Source of the DNA: Candidatus Nomurabacteria bacterium
Lineage (GTDB): Bacteria > Patescibacteriota > Minisyncoccia > Phycocordibacterales > UBA5272
Assembly (NCBI GenBank): GCA_040376695.1
Contig: JBEIQD010000001.1
Span: forward strand, 145,437-209,436
Direction: 5' to 3'
DNA: 64,000 nt
The position numbers were made by a program, and so were the translations under genes. The notes under the pieces were generated by a model that did not search any database, was not told the DNA's origin, and saw only the letters and a list, made by a program, of their open reading frames with translations. Every line of letters begins with the position of its first letter. Position 1 is the first letter of the stretch. Shown piece by piece: positions 33,999-55,088 of the stretch.

Positions 33999-35516
33999 CT
34001 ATTGAGGAAGATTAACTGGAGCAACACCTTTAGCACTATCAATACGTGGAAGTGTAGGAGTTGTGGCAACTGCGCCAGGTAAGTGCCATAGAGTAGCAAG
34101 TTCCTCAAGGTTAAGTGTAAATACTTCGTCCGCATGTGGGTGACTAAATGGATGGAAAAATCCTTCATACACCATACGCCATAGTTTTCTTGTCTTCATA
34201 TCAGAACCCCAGAAAGCAGAATCCTCCCGTTTGTCGAGCCATTCTCTTCCTTCGATATGAGGATAGAAACCTTCACGTTCAACATACGCCTCAAACATCT
34301 CTTCTGTTCTCCAAGGAATTCTTCGTCCTTTATAATTCTGCCAATTAAAGTCGTACGGAGTTGTCACTTTCTTAAAGCTAACAGAGTTTATTCCCACGGT
34401 AGGCTTGTGAACACTGAGGATATTTTGAATATTTCCTCCATTAAATTTTCCTTTATTTTTATCTACCACATACAACATGCGTATGATGACGTTTGCGAGC
34501 GGCTTTGATAGCTTCTTATTAACTGCTTCTATGAGATCCTTGTCTTCAGAACTTAAATCCATTTCCTTTTTTGAAATGGCTTTTGTTTTTTGATGTACAG
34601 CATCTCCAAAAATTGGCTTTCCCTCTGCGTCTTTACCGGTTTGCTTTTGTTTTATATCACCTTCATCATCGTATACTTTATCTCCTTTTTTGACCCAACC
34701 GCCTATTTTTAGTTGTTTCTTGTACTTGTCAGCCATATCCTTAAGAGATAAATGCTCATGTGATATTTCATTAAGATAAAGCTTTGGCATCTTCCTGCCG
34801 TCATACACTGACTCATCTTGAAGAATAATTTGGTACCACAAATATTCACCCTTTCCCATACTTCCCATCATTTCTAAGATTGGCGTAATTGGATCAATTT
34901 TAAATTCTTCTTTTGGATCCTTATCAAGACCGTAATCTACGTATGTCTTAATAGGTAAAAAATCCGCCTTCATTTTATACGGCTCTCCTTTTTTATCTTT
35001 ATATGGTTCCCCTTCATCCTCATTAGTTGGCGTCCAAGATTTTTGAAGTCCGTATGTTTCCCCCCAACATTCCACATCTTTTGAAAGGTGATGGTATCTA
35101 ATGAGATTTGTATAGTCATCGGCTTCAACGATTTCAATGCCTGGATATTGCGCATAAAAATTAGACTCCACAAGTGAACGGAACTTACCTTGTGTACGAA
35201 TATAAAAATGAATTACTCCCTCAAGAGAAGCTATTTCAAGCGATGAATACATTGGAAGATTCCCTTGGAAATATTTGTTATACCAAGTACCGATACCTCC
35301 TCCTTGTAAAAGAGAAGCGAGCGCAACTTCCGTTGCATACGGGGATTTAAAGATTTCACGAGGGAGCTTGATTTCAAGCATGATATATTCCTGACTCGTT
35401 TTATTTAAATATTTCTGATTAATATACATCATCCAGAACCTCCACGACCATGCACATAGAAGTAGGAATAGACAAAAATAGATAAGGCTGAGCGCGATAT
35501 CAATGAGGAGTTGCAT
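33999..35516 (-). CDS. Hypothetical membrane-anchored protein (505 aa)
   Basis: N-terminal TM helix (IALSLIYFCLFLLLCAWSW) followed by a large soluble domain with Lys/Asp-rich central low-complexity segment. No recognisable catalytic motif. Stop abuts mltG start (operon). Confidence 0.65.
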   Translation of the reverse strand: MQLLIDIALSLIYFCLFLLLCAWSWRFWMMYINQKYLNKTSQEYIMLEIKLPREIFKSPYATEVALASLLQGGGIGTWYNKYFQGNLPMYSSLEIASLEGVIHFYIRTQGKFRSLVESNFYAQYPGIEIVEADDYTNLIRYHHLSKDVECWGETYGLQKSWTPTNEDEGEPYKDKKGEPYKMKADFLPIKTYVDYGLDKDPKEEFKIDPITPILEMMGSMGKGEYLWYQIILQDESVYDGRKMPKLYLNEISHEHLSLKDMADKYKKQLKIGGWVKKGDKVYDDEGDIKQKQTGKDAEGKPIFGDAVHQKTKAISKKEMDLSSEDKDLIEAVNKKLSKPLANVIIRMLYVVDKNKGKFNGGNIQNILSVHKPTVGINSVSFKKVTTPYDFNWQNYKGRRIPWRTEEMFEAYVEREGFYPHIEGREWLDKREDSAFWGSDMKTRKLWRMVYEGFFHPFSHPHADEVFTLNLEELATLWHLPGAVATTPTLPRIDSAKGVAPVNLPQ

Positions 35517-36684: not shown

Positions 36685-39564
36685 TCAAATTACGATATTT
36701 ATGAGCTTGTTAGGCACAAAAATGATTTTCTTTGGGGTAGCTTCGCCTACATATTTCTGGAAGAAGTCAGTTTTCTTAACCTCGTCTAACACGTGTATCT
36801 CTGTCGTATCATGAGGAACTGTAAGGGTTCCTCGCAACTTACCGCCAATTTGAACCGCGATAGTGGCGCTCGCTTCACGGATGTAATTTTCATCATAGAC
36901 AGTCCAATCAGCTGCGTGGATCGAACCTTCTTCCCCTAGCTGGTTCCATAGCTCTTCTGTAATATGAGGTGCGAATGGAGCTAAAACCTTGAGGAACTCC
37001 GTGTACCAATACTGAGAAATTGAAGCTTCTTCATCGGCTTGATTAAGGCAAATCATCATCGCACTAATGGCGGTATTAAATTTGAAACCTTCAATATCTT
37101 CACCTACTTTTTTAATTGTTTTATGAAGCAATGACTTCATCTTATCTGAGTCAGCAACATCAGCAGATACTTTACCGGAGAGCTTCCATACCCGCTCTAA
37201 AAAGCGCTCAGTGCCTGCAATTCCTTTCGTATCCCAAGCAACTGTTTGCTCAAATGGACCCATAAACATTTCATACATACGAAGTGTGTCTGCTCCGTAT
37301 TGATTAACCACATCGTCTGGGTTAATAACGTTCCCTGCACGTTTACTCATTTTGCGTCCGTCTTCCGCAAGAATGAATCCGAGGAATTCAAGTCGTGAAA
37401 AAGGTTCATCGTTTGACACAACACCAATGTCATATAAAAACTTGTGCCAAAAACGAGCATAGATTAAATGGCGGGTTGCGTGGTCTCCTCCAACATAGAC
37501 ATCCACCGGCTGCCATTTCTTTTCAATCCCCGCATCAGTAAGAGCTTGAGAGTTATGCGGATCAGCGAAACGAAGATAGTACCATGATGAACCGGCCCAC
37601 TGCGGCATAGTGTTTGTTTCGCGAGTAAAGCGCTTTGCTTGTGGATGAGATGATTCGCAACTTACAAACTCCCCTTCTTCATTAAGATATCCCGTAATGT
37701 TCACCCAAGATTCTATAGCCGCAAGGGGGCTTTCTCCTGTTCCTGTCGGTTCATATTTTTCTACCTCAGGCAATCTAACTGGAAGCTCACTGTCAGCAAC
37801 AACATAGGCAACATGATTCTCATCAAATACAATTGGAAAAGGTTCACCCCAATATCTTTGTCGTGCGAACACCCAATCTTTCAAACGATATCGAGAGATA
37901 AGTTTTCCTCCGACAACTTCAGTGATTTTTTTACGTGCTTCTTCAGAAGAAACTCCGACATGACTTCCAGAATTAACGAGCACACCTTCCCCTGTGTACG
38001 CGACATCTTTACCCGCCTTAAGTCGAGCTAACCAAAGTGGAAGCTCTGAGTTCACCATTTTTCCTGGAACAAAATCAGATGCATCTACCCAAACAATCTC
38101 ATTTCCTTCATCTTCTGCGATTCCTACATTTGTTTCATCCTCCAGCTCAAAATAGAGAGCAGAGGCAATCGCTAGTCTATTTTCATCTTTATGCTTCGTA
38201 AAGTAACTTGTCTGCACTGGATTTCCAAGTGTTCGTTTATATACAACATTCACATATCCAGTTTCTTCTCGTAGTTCACGCTTTGCTGCTTCAACAAGAT
38301 CTTCTCCGTCATCAACACCCCCCATAACAACAGTGTCCCAGCCATGAGTTTCATTCCTTAAAATAAGATACTTTTTAGTGGCGGGATTATAGACAATAAC
38401 GTGAACGTTTCTTCGCTTCACTTCTCGCTTCCCTTCCTGGGGTGGATTAACTGTATCGACAATAGACGGACGAACAACTTCTTTAATTGGAAGATTGTAT
38501 GTCTGAGCAAATTCGAAATCACGTTCATCATGTGCTGGAACTGCCATAAGTGCACCTGTTCCAACTCCTCCCATCACATAATTGGCAATCCACACAGGAA
38601 TTTCTTCTTTCGTTGCTGGATTGATTGCATACACACCAGTAAAAATTCCTTTCTTCTCTTTATCAGCTCCATATCCAAGAGACTCTTGCTCATTTTGAAG
38701 CAAAGCAATAAAGCTAATAACTTCTGACGAGGCTTCCCATCCATTCTTAATCCATGTATTTGCAAGTTCAGCTGAAATAGCAACAAAGGTCGCGCCGTAG
38801 AGTGTATCTGGTCGAGTGGTAAACACTTTTTGAGATGGAGGGACACCCTTTCCTGCAGCTAATTCAAAATCAAACTCAGCCCCCTCACTTTTCCCAATCC
38901 AGTTCTTTTGTGCGAGCTTAACCCCTTCCGGCCATTCCAATGTATCCAAATCTGCAATCATGCGGTCTGCGTAATCAGTAATCTTAAGCACCCACTGACG
39001 AAGTGGTTTCTTTTCTACTTTGCTCCCGCAGCGTTCACAAGAGTCTCCTTCTAGATCTTCATTCGCAAGTCCAGTCTTGCATGATGGACACCAATTAATA
39101 GGTTCATTGCTTTCGTACGCGAGATCTTTCTTCCACATTTGTTTAAAAATCCACTGAGTCCATTTATAGAACTCTGGATCGGTTGTATTGATTTCTTTTG
39201 TCCAATCATAATTACATCCAATAATTGAAAGCTGCTCCTTAAAGCGAGCAATATTTTTCTCAACAGCAACTCGTGGATGAACTTTATGTTTAAGAGCAAA
39301 TTCCTCAGCAGGAAGACCAAAAGCATCCCATCCCATTGGGTGGAGTATTTCATAACCTGCCATTGTCTTCATTCGAGAATAAATATCAGTTGCGATATAT
39401 CCTTTAGGATGACCTACGTGAAGCCCTTCACCTGACGGGTATGGAAACATATCCAATACATACATTTTCTTTTTTGTGGTGGAAATATCAGTCTCATAGA
39501 GCTTTGTATCTGCCCACTTCTTCTGCCACTTAGATTCTATGTTTTTAGGATTATATGATTCCAT
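36685..39564 (-). CDS. leuS: Leucyl-tRNA synthetase with inserted NUDIX hydrolase domain
   Basis: HIGH (PYPSGEGLHVGHP), editing-domain TTRPDT, KMSKR. Between AHDERDFEFA and YRLKDW lies an extra ~140-aa segment with a complete Nudix box GGVDDGEDLVEAAKRELREETGY (GX5EX7REUXEEXGU). Confidence 0.9.
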   Translation of the reverse strand: MESYNPKNIESKWQKKWADTKLYETDISTTKKKMYVLDMFPYPSGEGLHVGHPKGYIATDIYSRMKTMAGYEILHPMGWDAFGLPAEEFALKHKVHPRVAVEKNIARFKEQLSIIGCNYDWTKEINTTDPEFYKWTQWIFKQMWKKDLAYESNEPINWCPSCKTGLANEDLEGDSCERCGSKVEKKPLRQWVLKITDYADRMIADLDTLEWPEGVKLAQKNWIGKSEGAEFDFELAAGKGVPPSQKVFTTRPDTLYGATFVAISAELANTWIKNGWEASSEVISFIALLQNEQESLGYGADKEKKGIFTGVYAINPATKEEIPVWIANYVMGGVGTGALMAVPAHDERDFEFAQTYNLPIKEVVRPSIVDTVNPPQEGKREVKRRNVHVIVYNPATKKYLILRNETHGWDTVVMGGVDDGEDLVEAAKRELREETGYVNVVYKRTLGNPVQTSYFTKHKDENRLAIASALYFELEDETNVGIAEDEGNEIVWVDASDFVPGKMVNSELPLWLARLKAGKDVAYTGEGVLVNSGSHVGVSSEEARKKITEVVGGKLISRYRLKDWVFARQRYWGEPFPIVFDENHVAYVVADSELPVRLPEVEKYEPTGTGESPLAAIESWVNITGYLNEEGEFVSCESSHPQAKRFTRETNTMPQWAGSSWYYLRFADPHNSQALTDAGIEKKWQPVDVYVGGDHATRHLIYARFWHKFLYDIGVVSNDEPFSRLEFLGFILAEDGRKMSKRAGNVINPDDVVNQYGADTLRMYEMFMGPFEQTVAWDTKGIAGTERFLERVWKLSGKVSADVADSDKMKSLLHKTIKKVGEDIEGFKFNTAISAMMICLNQADEEASISQYWYTEFLKVLAPFAPHITEELWNQLGEEGSIHAADWTVYDENYIREASATIAVQIGGKLRGTLTVPHDTTEIHVLDEVKKTDFFQKYVGEATPKKIIFVPNKLINIVI

Positions 39565-40789: not shown

Positions 40790-41272
40790 ATGAAATCCCC
40801 TTCAAATACCCCAATAAACGACCTTGAGGTTCTTGCGCTTAAGATTACTAAGTGGACTGGATCAATTTGGTCAATCATTGCTCATACCCTTTTATTCATA
40901 GGAGCCTTTACATTGGTTCTCATGGGTGTTGATCTTGATCGAGTACTTCTTGTGTTAACAACAGTTGTATCTCTTGAAGCAATTTACTTATCCATCTTCA
41001 TTCAAATGAGTGTTAACCATCAGGCACGAGCTCTCGCAAATGTTGAAAAAGACATTGATGAAATTCAGGAGGACGTTGAAGAGATTGCTGAGGATATGGA
41101 AGAGATTGCTGAGGATGTTGAGGAAATCGCAGAAGACGTCGAAGAGATTGCTGAAGACGTGGAAGAAATGCAAGAAGATATTGATGAGATTCAGGAAGAT
41201 GTGGATGAAATTCAGGAGGACGTTGAGGTAATTACTGAAGAACACGAAAAAGAACTAGAGGCGAAGAAATAA
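40790..41272 (+). CDS. DUF1003-family membrane protein with acidic C-terminal octapeptide repeats
   Basis: Two TM helices then EDVEEIAE-type repeats x7. Followed by a terminator. Confidence 0.65.
   Translation: MKSPSNTPINDLEVLALKITKWTGSIWSIIAHTLLFIGAFTLVLMGVDLDRVLLVLTTVVSLEAIYLSIFIQMSVNHQARALANVEKDIDEIQEDVEEIAEDMEEIAEDVEEIAEDVEEIAEDVEEMQEDIDEIQEDVDEIQEDVEVITEEHEKELEAKK
41054..41230 (+). repeat. Imperfect 24-nt tandem repeat (~7 copies) encoding acidic octapeptide (E-D-V-E-E-I-A-E)
   Basis: Seen directly: gaggacgttgaagagattgct / gaggatatggaagagattgct / gaggatgttgaggaaatcgca ... Confidence 0.8.
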
Positions 41273-41933: not shown

Positions 41934-42317
41934 CTATGAGACGATTTTACTATGGACTTCTTTCAACTCTTCCTCAGAAGCATCATATGCACTCCCTACA
42001 TCAAGATCCTTAATGCTGTTACTTGGAATAAGGTGAACGTGGGCATGTGGCACTTCAAAACCAGCAACAATCACACCGACACGAGAACAGCTAAGTTTTT
42101 CTTTAAGAATCTTCGTTACCACTTTTGCAGTATTCCACATGTGCATAAAGTATTCTTCTGGTACATCATCCCAGTGATCTACTTCAACTTTAGGAACTAT
42201 CAGTGTGTGACCTTTTGTCTGTGGTCTAATCGTTAAGAATGCAATAGTGTACTCATCTTCATATATCTTGTATGCAGGAATTTCACCTGCGATTATTTTT
42301 GTAAAAATTGATGACAT
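41934..42317 (-). CDS. HIT-family (histidine triad) hydrolase
   Basis: HIT motif HAHVHLIP. Confidence 0.85.
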   Translation of the reverse strand: MSSIFTKIIAGEIPAYKIYEDEYTIAFLTIRPQTKGHTLIVPKVEVDHWDDVPEEYFMHMWNTAKVVTKILKEKLSCSRVGVIVAGFEVPHAHVHLIPSNSIKDLDVGSAYDASEEELKEVHSKIVS

Positions 42318-53175: not shown

Positions 53176-53257
53176 GCCCGGGTGGCGAAATTGGTAGACG
53201 CACTTGCCTTAGGAGCAAGCGAGGCAACTCATGAAGGTTCAAGTCCTTTCCCGGGCA
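53176..53257 (+). tRNA. tRNA-Leu (anticodon TAG)
   Basis: Acceptor GCCCGGG/CCCGGGC, anticodon stem-loop CTTGC-CTTAGGA-GCAAG, long variable arm, T-loop TTCAAGT. Confidence 0.8.
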
Positions 53258-53261
53258 CACA

Positions 53262-54890: not shown

Positions 54891-54973
54891 GCCCGGGTGA
54901 TGGAATGGTAGACATAGAGGACTTAAAATCCTCGGCTGGTTACAGCGTGCGGGTTCGAGTCCCGCCCTGGGCA
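54891..54973 (+). tRNA. tRNA-Leu (anticodon TAA)
   Basis: Acceptor GCCCGGG/CCTGGGC (one G-U), anticodon stem-loop GAGGA-CTTAAAA-TCCTC, long variable arm, T-loop TTCGAGT. Confidence 0.8.
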
Positions 54974-55088
54974 CATTTACATGTCGCAATATTTTTGCAA
55001 TCTGTACAGATTGTCTTTTCTGTTTTTTGATGGCAGTATGATGTGCAATTGTTCATTGTGAACCAAACCACTTCAAGGGAGAAAAGGT

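Follow-up and report, generated by a model that had tools for sequence, protein, structure and literature searches.

A Nudix hydrolase domain nested within the CP1 editing domain of a patescibacterial leucyl-tRNA synthetase

The leuS gene and its product

The 64,000-nucleotide stretch of DNA analyzed in this study, referred to as the window, contains a leuS open reading frame at 36685..39564 on the (-) strand. In the list of open reading frames it is a single, uninterrupted frame of 959 amino acids, which encodes a bacterial-type leucyl-tRNA synthetase (LeuRS). All features of the gene described below lie on the same (-) strand. The protein scored 927.5 bits against the TIGR00396 model (leuS_bact), above the curated equivalog cut-off of 548.4, and the match falls in two stretches with an insert between them. 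The Pfam domains identified in the protein are tRNA-synt_1, the editing domain PF13603 (aa 220-369), Anticodon_1 and NUDIX (PF00293). Phmmer matched the window LeuRS to T. thermophilus LeuRS (1h3n) with an E value of 1e-187, and Foldseek matched its fold to E. coli LeuRS (5omw_A; E 5e-77, TMt 0.82, 33% identity). The full-length AF2 model, which the initial annotation had proposed as a check, has a pLDDT of 89.1 and a pTM of 0.78, and both junctions of the insert are modelled with confidence.

The initial annotation described the catalytic and editing elements of this LeuRS as normal, and each element that it named was found. The HIGH signature is represented by HVGH (aa 49-52; 39409..39420) and the KMSKS signature by KMSKR (aa 738-742; 37339..37353); H49, G51 and H52 in the former and K738 and K741 in the latter are invariant in 87 orthologues. 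The part of the CP1 editing domain upstream of the insert covers aa 220-365 (38470..38907), and PF13603 scored 185.8 bits over aa 220-369. This part contains the T-rich motif TTRPDT (aa 249-254; 38803-38820) and the segment GTGALMAVPAHDERD (38518-38562), and the editing residues T249, T250, R251, D253, T254, D346 and D349 are also invariant in the 87 orthologues. The part of CP1 downstream of the insert, where the alignments resume, covers aa 523-558 (37891..37998) and leads into YRLKDW at aa 559-564. The other strings quoted in the initial annotation, AHDERDFEFA (aa 344-353) and the Nudix box discussed below, are likewise present. The LeuRS core retains all of its predicted synthetic-site and editing-site residues.

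Compared with the bacterial LeuRSs of E. coli (4aq7/5omw) and T. thermophilus (1h3n/2byt), the window LeuRS is alike in family, fold, HIGH and KMSKS signatures, T-rich region and editing aspartate. It differs from the T. thermophilus enzyme in having an extra enzymatic domain of 157 amino acids, which is nested in CP1 between residues 363 and 375. In addition, the leucine-specific domain (about 580-638 in T. thermophilus) is absent from the window LeuRS. Nesting has a precedent in LeuRS, since CP1 itself is an insertion into the Rossmann fold.

The inserted Nudix domain

The whole inserted segment covers aa 366-522 (157 aa; 37999..38469) and takes the place of a CP1 editing-domain loop of approximately 11-16 residues. 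In the alignment with T. thermophilus LeuRS, residues 366-520 of the query have no counterpart and stand in place of residues 364-374, and residue 521 of the query corresponds to residue 375. An enlarged spacing between the AHDERDFEFA and YRLKDW blocks had been noted initially, and it was confirmed here as 216 residues from the start of AHDxRD to YRLKDW, compared with 64-95 in close orthologues that have no insert.

A Nudix domain had been placed at 38020-38418, and the Pfam match to PF00293 falls within that interval (aa 383-505; 38050..38418), with a score of 55.4 bits, a gathering cut-off of 21.1 and an E value of 8.2e-15. The AF2 model of the insert alone (pLDDT 92, pTM 0.85) has the beta-sheet and two-helix topology of Nudix proteins, in line with their alpha/beta/alpha sandwich fold. 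A Foldseek search with the insert returned 565 PDB matches at E<=0.001, and the best 50 of these 565 are all Nudix-family entries. Many solved Nudix hydrolases were matched with a probability of 1.00 and TM scores of 0.6-0.7.

The Nudix box, which forms the metal-binding catalytic helix, is GGVDDGEDLVEAAKRELREETGY (aa 415-437; 38254..38322). It had been called a textbook example, and it fits the consensus GX5EX7REUXEEXGU exactly. The initial annotation suggested aligning LeuRSs from related Patescibacteria and proposed that poorly conserved catalytic glutamates would indicate a degenerate insertion. The opposite was found. In 84 inserts at the same site, the glutamates of the box are kept almost without exception (E421 in 82, E430 in 83, E433 in 84 and E434 in 83), as are R429 (82) and G436 (84). 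A second element, the family-specific motif Y/F-F-A-x-H-K-x-x-N-R, is located at aa 454-463 (38176..38205), 17-26 residues past the box in the X-loop region, which is where the substrate specificity of Nudix enzymes is normally set. In the same 84 inserts, K459 is conserved in 82, N462 in 75 and R463 in 69, and position 454, 17 residues after the box, is tyrosine in 56, phenylalanine in 12 and glycine in 14. The X-loop, approximately 17 residues downstream of the Nudix box, carries a conserved tyrosine in ApnA hydrolases (PMC5389931).

The mean identity is approximately 50% for the insert, compared with approximately 66% for the LeuRS core. The near-invariant catalytic residues in 84 inserts that are this divergent reflect purifying selection on the predicted enzymatic activity. 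The Pfam, conservation, AF2 and Foldseek results agree on a Nudix domain that looks catalytically competent and lies within an otherwise normal LeuRS, past the editing-site aspartate block, as initially proposed. It is almost certainly a real nested domain and is very probably catalytically active.

Other origins of the segment were considered as well. No intein/Hint, homing-endonuclease or nuclease signature was found in aa 366-522, where PF00293 is the sole Pfam match, and the model of the insert shows nothing beyond a Nudix fold; an intein or mobile element was rejected on these grounds. Recent foreign DNA was also rejected, because the G+C content of the insert is approximately 0.41 and that of the flanks is 0.41-0.43.

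Distribution, loss and exchange of the insert

PF00293 was identified in approximately 104 of the best 120 LeuRS clusters, which were drawn from NCBI, ENA, JGI and Logan, and at least 100 independent Patescibacteria LeuRS clusters carry the Nudix insert at the same site. A protein identical over all 959 amino acids is on record (P0397). One Nudix family is found in three different loops of LeuRS, with one to three copies per protein, and the box is degenerate in the copies that relatives carry at site C (for example, GGIEKGQ...ARQEVREETGF). Unrelated nested domains, namely ASCH, methyltransferase and alpha/beta-hydrolase domains, also occur at LeuRS insertion sites. Outside LeuRS, nested members of the Nudix family of the insert occur in an M17 aminopeptidase (P0258) and a DPANN ProRS. 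The insertion is not a one-off; it is part of a lineage-wide, multi-site and cassette-like tie of one Nudix family to aminoacyl-tRNA synthetase (aaRS) genes.

The syntenic orthologue P0024 does not have the insert and has approximately 16 amino acids at that position, with query residue 523 aligned to P0024 residue 392 by BLASTP; the two proteins differ here by a clean indel. The insert-free sister locus L018 was compared with the window by blastn. The flanks are collinear, and the gap between them is 961 nt in the window versus 568 nt in L018. Orthologues with and without the insert are 72-82% identical across the two aligned flanks. A neighbor-joining tree of the LeuRS core required seven parsimony changes, with the presence of the insert inferred at the root. 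On this reconstruction the Nudix insert was lost repeatedly, including in the syntenic sister genome, which indicates that the module is dispensable. Since close orthologues work without the Nudix domain, it would be an accessory and not part of the aminoacylation mechanism. The insert and core also differ in their relationships. The window LeuRS and P0003 are 93% identical in the core and 72% in the insert, and the window LeuRS and P0004-6 are approximately 76% identical in the core and 85-89% in the insert. Two insert alleles were found within one 90%-identity cluster. Judged from these identities, the Nudix insert is swapped in a cassette-like manner between close relatives.

Members of the family also occur as stand-alone genes, and an aaRS gene adjoins four or five of the seven informative stand-alone loci. 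P0184 is located 2 nt upstream of a leuS without the insert; this pair is read as a split form of the fusion and, as such, is Rosetta-stone evidence for a link to aaRSs. P0149 is likewise separated by 2 nt from a downstream leuS, in this case one with the insert, P0189 is located between argS and ileS, and P0153 is two genes from a ProRS that carries a nested copy of the same Nudix family. P0160 is located 4 nt downstream of fpg/MutM and not beside an aaRS gene, and dUTPase, thymidylate kinase and another Nudix gene are found in the neighbourhood of P0189. The fpg and dUTPase/thymidylate kinase neighbourhoods suggest a role in nucleotide-pool sanitation.

A six-frame scan of the window with the family HMM identified no further Nudix gene as a potential donor, and no stand-alone Nudix gene that might compensate for the missing insert was found in 22 kb of the insert-free L018 locus. 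Upstream of leuS, Rfam gave no match to a leader RNA or T-box, only to tRNAs. A HIT-family gene is located at 41934-42317, three genes from leuS. It was rejected as a substitute for the Nudix domain because L018 has this gene as well.

Substrate and role of the nested domain

The best sequence match to the insert among solved structures was lupin Ap4A hydrolase (1f3y; profile search, E 7e-12, 48.6 bits). Among the NCBIfam models, those for RppH gave the most consistent matches (17 of 18 inserts), all far below the curated cut-offs; the best score was 29.1 bits and the RppH equivalog cut-off is 116, and for this reason the insert is not filed as RppH. NudB was the best single NCBIfam match of the window insert, and the NudB and NudI matches are also far below their cut-offs. 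The MutT 8-oxo-dGTPase model TIGR00586 gave only a weak match, below its cut-off, in 3 of the 18 inserts. Foldseek ranked MutT-like proteins, NudI, RppH and Ap4A/Ap6A hydrolases about equally, and its top matches include MutT/nudix 2azw, M. smegmatis MutT1 and NudI. The insert shares the Nudix fold and the canonical box with RppH/NudH (E. coli RppH, 4s2w/7sp3) and plant-type Ap4A hydrolases (1f3y), and its aromatic residue in the X-loop region may correspond to the tyrosine of ApnA hydrolases. However, it is only 16-25% identical to these enzymes and is nested in a synthetase instead of free-standing. To our knowledge, the H-K-x-x-N-R motif is not a signature of either the RppH/NudH or the plant-type Ap4A hydrolase family. 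A polyphosphate chain could be accommodated by R384, K459 and R463, which are basic and conserved. The direction that is best supported, although weakly, is Ap4A or other nucleotide by-products, and an Ap4N- or RppH-like substrate is put forward tentatively, as a possibility that falls short of even.

The best explanation as a whole, to which slightly better than even confidence is given, is an intact Nudix domain nested in a functional LeuRS, which belongs to an aaRS-tied family and acts on a polyphosphate-linked nucleotide. The Nudix pyrophosphohydrolase would sit in a surface loop of CP1, so that three domains are nested one inside the next. Since the LeuRS core residues are all kept, the protein most likely has three active sites, which would serve aminoacylation, post-transfer editing and Nudix hydrolysis. 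The family would be a Patescibacteria/DPANN Nudix family that is tied to aaRS genes, either by nesting (LeuRS, ProRS) or by abutting leuS, argS and ileS, and it is fairly probable that this reflects a functional link to aaRSs and not a random fusion. The substrate hydrolyzed by the domain would be a polyphosphate-linked nucleotide that is produced or encountered by aaRSs. The likeliest candidates would be the dinucleoside polyphosphates Ap4A/Ap4N, or the related 5'-polyphosphate/Np4 RNA caps, as for RppH/NudH-type enzymes. Ap4A and Ap4N are formed when an aminoacyl-adenylate (aa-AMP) reacts with ATP or another NTP; cells obtain their Ap4N mainly from aaRSs and remove it with dedicated hydrolases, Nudix enzymes among them. 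In these minimal-genome organisms, the product would thereby be removed at its source. A broader proposal, considered unlikely, is that the aaRSs of ultra-small prokaryotes (Patescibacteria and DPANN) act as scaffolds for a recombining family of accessory-enzyme cassettes. The Nudix domain would then be a third catalytic site for what the synthetase makes or holds: it would destroy Ap4N or cap precursors as they arise on LeuRS, or would act on the bound tRNA at its 5' polyphosphate or cap.

Several other explanations were weighed against an aaRS-linked hydrolase. The domain may be a housekeeping sanitiser of the nucleotide pool, a MutT/NudI/NudB-like NTP pyrophosphatase whose mechanism is unconnected with that of LeuRS and which was fused only for co-expression and genome economy in an essential, constitutive gene. 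The MutT-like and NudI structures at the top of the Foldseek results and the NudB match are consistent with such an enzyme, as are P0160 beside fpg/MutM, which is a GO-system pairing, the genes near P0189, and the repeated loss of the insert with no replacement nearby. However, the MutT models match few inserts, economy alone does not readily account for recurrent adjacency to or nesting in several different aaRS genes, and independent insertion at three LeuRS loops suggests that LeuRS is specifically favoured; a sanitiser is considered rather unlikely. The domain may instead be a neutral or selfish passenger cassette that recombines into permissive loops of large essential CPR/DPANN proteins and persists since excision is rare, like ASCH, methyltransferase, alpha/beta-hydrolase, GNAT and His-phosphatase modules. 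The use of three sites with up to three copies per LeuRS, the other domain types at the same sites, the nested copies in the aminopeptidase and ProRS, and the exchange, paired alleles and frequent loss described above would all fit a passenger. The near-invariant catalytic residues, the lack of any intein/Hint or nuclease signature and a G+C content within the flank range argue against it, and it is judged quite unlikely. A passenger cassette is compatible with a useful Nudix activity.

Hydrolysis of mis-activated aminoacyl-adenylates was the first activity listed in the initial annotation; with norvalyl-AMP or Ile-AMP, for example, as substrate, the Nudix domain would be a pre-transfer editing module. 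The only point in favor of such a module is the position inside the editing domain, and since the CP1 editing residues are all intact, no replacement editing module would be needed. Aa-AMP is an acyl-phosphate mixed anhydride, and Nudix enzymes cleave the diphosphate linkages of nucleoside diphosphate-X compounds; we know of no Nudix enzyme that hydrolyzes aa-AMP. HIT-family enzymes are known aa-AMP hydrolases, and one is encoded nearby. The same family is also found stand-alone beside fpg and nested in ProRS and an aminopeptidase. Aminoacyl-adenylate hydrolysis is thus chemically unlikely and the least plausible substrate option, and pre-transfer editing is regarded as highly improbable. A structural, tRNA-binding or protein-binding module that retains the Nudix fold without catalysis would be consistent with the degenerate site-C boxes, in which the fold persists with altered catalytic residues. 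The window copy, however, keeps every canonical catalytic residue, as do 82-84 of the 84 same-site copies, which makes a non-catalytic module very unlikely. Lastly, an assembly chimera or frameshift, named in the initial annotation as a possible source of error, was rejected as having practically no likelihood, given the uninterrupted frame, the number of independent clusters from four data sources, the identical protein, the conserved site and the confident junctions.

The proposed LeuRS-linked hydrolase can be compared with several known systems. IleRS with an N-acetyltransferase (NF040702, ileS_w_GNAT) is likewise a class Ia aaRS with an extra unrelated enzymatic domain and is a curated architecture. 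It differs in both the synthetase and the passenger domain, and it matched the window LeuRS only weakly; no curated NCBIfam model for LeuRS with Nudix was among the matches of the window LeuRS. Bifunctional NadM-Nudix (NF003786), also a weak match, likewise has a Nudix domain covalently attached to a nucleotidyltransferase, here one of the HxGH type whose product is adenylylated. NadM-Nudix (NMN adenylyltransferase/ADP-ribose pyrophosphatase) is an end-to-end fusion, specific for ADP-ribose and unrelated to tRNA charging, whereas the LeuRS Nudix domain is a nested insertion. The pairing of aaRSs with Ap4A hydrolases (LysRS/LysU with NUDT2, ApaH, YqeK or RppH) is a conceptual likeness. Those pairs are separate proteins, whereas LeuRS and Nudix form one polypeptide or adjacent genes and the Ap4A activity is putative.

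A full-text literature search found no published description of the LeuRS-Nudix architecture or its role. Little architectural variation is usually expected of bacterial aaRSs, so an intact hydrolase nested in the proofreading domain of LeuRS across much of Patescibacteria is notable, as are the one to three copies per protein, the split-gene forms beside leuS and the comparable nesting in a ProRS of archaea. Should Ap4N, RNA 5' polyphosphates or RNA caps prove to be what the module degrades, the main source of these alarmones in the cell would be physically linked to their removal, and the natural orthologues with and without the insert would be a simple recombinant system for studying the control of aaRS side reactions. 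If the scaffold proposal is true, tRNA charging would be coupled to the metabolism of nucleotides or RNA ends at a level that has so far gone unrecognised. The cassettes also bear on annotation and phylogenomics: LeuRS is widely used as a marker protein, and the gain, loss and exchange of the cassettes do not follow the host gene.

Architecture of the host synthetase

The leuS gene (36685-39564, minus strand) encodes a protein of 959 amino acids, which matched the NCBIfam bacterial LeuRS equivalog with 927.5 bits, above the cut-off of 548.4, in two stretches with foreign sequence between them. Pfam identified a class I catalytic domain, a LeuRS editing domain (residues 220-369), an anticodon-binding domain and a NUDIX domain (residues 383-505, nt 38050-38418, minus strand; 55.4 bits, cut-off 21.1, E 8e-15). 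The NUDIX match falls inside the interval where the initial annotation had placed a Nudix domain within LeuRS. This nesting was borne out by Pfam, NCBIfam and an alignment with T. thermophilus LeuRS, in which query residues 366-520 were unmatched and stood in place of editing-domain residues 364-374. All of the strings quoted in that annotation were also found: HVGH, TTRPDT, AHDERDFEFA, the Nudix box GGVDDGEDLVEAAKRELREETGY, YRLKDW and KMSKR. The HIGH and KMSKS motifs are invariant in 87 orthologues, as are the T-rich motif and the Asp residues of the editing domain, and by its sequence the LeuRS is intact as a host enzyme. The protein is a member of both the bacterial LeuRS family and the Nudix superfamily, with every testable defining feature present. 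The leucine-specific domain is missing (nt 37339-37460, residues about 703-742); the T. thermophilus alignment skips from residue 580 to 638, directly before KMSKS.

A full-length AlphaFold2 model based on an 87-sequence alignment (pLDDT 89.1, pTM 0.78) superposes on E. coli LeuRS-tRNA complexes with a TMt of 0.82. A model of the insert only (pLDDT 92) matches hundreds of solved Nudix hydrolases with a probability of 1.0. These include MutT-like 2azw, MutT1, NudI, RppH and Ap4A/Ap6A hydrolases (TM 0.6-0.7 at 16-25% identity), and no Nudix subfamily among the solved structures came ahead of the others. The inserted Nudix domain is complete, and its catalytic residues are conserved.

Several near precedents exist. 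The CP1 domain of LeuRS is itself a nested domain, and a curated architecture, NF040702 ("IleRS with GNAT domain"), was seen among the NCBIfam matches. NadM-Nudix is also a near precedent, in which the fusion is end-to-end. The composition of LeuRS plus Nudix has already been noticed by automated pipelines; for example, JGI names one related LeuRS (P0029) "leucyl-tRNA synthetase/8-oxo-dGTP pyrophosphatase MutT". Full-text literature searches found no description of the LeuRS-Nudix architecture, and the 2017 review of the Nudix clan nowhere mentions tRNA or synthetases.

Conservation, loss and exchange of the insert

When LeuRS clusters (90% identity) were ranked by a full-length search, about 104 of the best 120 contained PF00293; such a ranking favours insert-bearing LeuRS, so that the figure is not an unbiased frequency. 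The insert-bearing clusters come from NCBI, ENA, JGI and Logan assemblies under names including Parcubacteria, Nomurabacteria and Patescibacteria, and a genome scan detected the insert in MAGs of Giovannonibacteria, Taylorbacteria, Nomurabacteria and Paceibacterota. With so many independent assemblies, and a database record of an identical 959-aa protein, the insert is not the assembly artefact considered in the initial annotation. Nor is the box degenerate, the other concern raised there: each catalytic residue is kept in 82-84 of the 84 inserts that share this site (G415 84, E421 82, R429 82, E430 83, E433 84, E434 83, G436 84). Family-specific conserved positions in these inserts are R384, K459, N462, R463, E484 and W492. 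Mean identity is about 50% for the insert and about 66% for the LeuRS core. Because the catalytic residues are near-invariant in a domain that is overall so variable, selection, as read from these alignments, acts on the Nudix active site. The finding is real, conserved and wider in scope than initially reported.

The insert is dispensable. Among orthologues without the insert the closest is P0024 (828 aa), whose locus, L018, is collinear with the window for about 20 kb and shares the order DUF5671 - leuS - sigma70_r4/HARE-HTH - 504-aa ORF. A clean indel separates two flanks of 72-82% identity between these LeuRSs; at the indel, P0024 has about 16 residues in place of residues 366-522 of the window protein. 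A neighbour-joining tree built on the LeuRS core groups the window protein with P0003 and puts P0024 as their sister; the root was inferred to be insert-bearing, and the seven parsimony changes are scattered. The window ORF 3' of the sigma70_r4/HARE-HTH gene (33999-35516, minus strand, 505 aa) keeps its synteny in L018 and has no Pfam match.

The window LeuRS and P0003 are 93% identical in the core and 72% in the insert, while for P0004-P0006 the values are about 76% and 85-89%; identity switches at residues about 350-510. In addition, one 90%-identity LeuRS cluster contains two alleles of the insert (959-aa and 962-aa forms; P0390-P0398), on cores 92.5-95% identical to that of the window. These discordant identities, and the two alleles in one cluster, indicate that the insert has a history different from that of its host gene and was exchanged as a cassette by recombination.

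An HMM derived from the inserts placed members of this Nudix family at three sites in LeuRS (ahead of the T-rich motif, between AHDERDFEFA and YRLKDW as in the window, and after YRLKDW), with one to three copies per LeuRS. Some Patescibacteria LeuRSs of 941-1477 aa (P0052, P0067, P0074, P0096, P0100, P0123 and P0124) carry two or three such domains in up to three loops. At the third site the Nudix box is degenerate (for example, GGIEKGQ...ARQEVREETGF). Other enzymes are also nested in related LeuRSs, in loops away from the window's site and usually alongside Nudix: ASCH (P0035, P0105), a SAM methyltransferase (P0049) and an alpha/beta serine hydrolase (P0067, P0087). An M17 aminopeptidase (P0258) has nested GNAT, Nudix and GNAT domains.

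Association of the Nudix family with synthetase genes

Searched with the profile, 1.84 billion cluster representatives yielded 956 members of the insert family at E<=1e-10, and LeuRSs or their fragments form the majority of the best 150. Stand-alone members of about 145-200 aa were also found. One (P0184; L022/L023/L024) lies 2 nt upstream of a leuS without nested Nudix, a split form of the LeuRS-Nudix fusion. Another (P0149, JGI 3300071358 contig) lies 2 nt upstream of an insert-bearing leuS in the window's own synteny, and a third (P0189) lies between argS and an IleRS with a nested histidine-phosphatase domain. A fourth (P0153) is two genes upstream of an archaeal-type ProRS (P0270, L025:2762-4693, 643 aa), which itself carries the same Nudix family (165 bits) between its anticodon-binding and C-terminal domains; the source of this ProRS is a DPANN archaeal lineage, and of its 120 closest ProRS clusters only 5 carry the nested Nudix. 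The family is associated with aminoacyl-tRNA synthetase genes. The exceptions are P0168, which adjoins another Nudix, and P0160 (L019:4016-5513), 4 nt downstream of fpg/MutM, a pairing that hints at a function in the 8-oxo-guanine (GO) system, at least in that branch.

The IleRS next to P0189 (L028:5094-8498; 1184+ aa, nested PF00300) follows argS and this stand-alone Nudix; genes for dUTPase, thymidylate kinase, a zeta-toxin-like protein and another Nudix are also nearby.

Candidate functions

The best solved homologue of the insert is lupin Ap4A hydrolase (26.8 bits by single sequence, 48.6 bits by profile). The most consistent NCBIfam matches were RppH models (17 of 18 inserts), at scores far below their cut-offs; the RppH, MutT and NudB equivalog cut-offs were not reached, and thus the insert was assigned to none of them. 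An aromatic residue 17 positions past the Nudix box falls within the X-loop region, the part of ApnA hydrolases that contains a conserved tyrosine (PMC5389931). The substrate leans weakly, on these comparisons, toward the RppH/NudH-Ap4A hydrolase group.

Aminoacyl-tRNA synthetases are the principal source of Ap4N, and for this reason removal at source is the most economical hypothesis. The Nudix domain would clear dinucleoside polyphosphates, or related RNA 5' polyphosphates or caps, where they arise; we hold this reading tentatively. A housekeeping sanitiser of nucleotides, for which the fpg and dUTPase neighbourhoods of stand-alone members and the fold matches to MutT and NudI speak, is rather unlikely, and a mainly neutral passenger cassette is improbable. 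Hydrolysis of aminoacyl-adenylates by the Nudix domain, proposed in the initial annotation, is chemically unlikely. HIT enzymes are known hydrolases of aminoacyl-adenylates and of some ApnA, and a HIT-family gene (41934-42317, minus strand; PF01230, 78.6 bits), kept in the syntenic locus L018, is present three genes upstream of leuS. The function of the insert is directly testable with the natural plus-insert and minus-insert orthologues as recombinant proteins.

Elsewhere in the window, an ORF of 160 aa (40790-41272, plus strand) encodes a membrane segment at the N-terminus and, after it, a repetitive tail that is highly acidic (IAEDVEEIAEDVEE...). Its Pfam matches are weak and under curated cut-offs, and G+C skew shows a sharp local peak (+0.3 to +0.44) at this ORF. 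At a distance of about 14-15 kb from leuS, a small tRNA cluster that includes tRNA-Lys and tRNA-Cys contains two tRNA-Leu genes, with anticodons UAG (53176-53258) and UAA (54891-54974), both on the plus strand.
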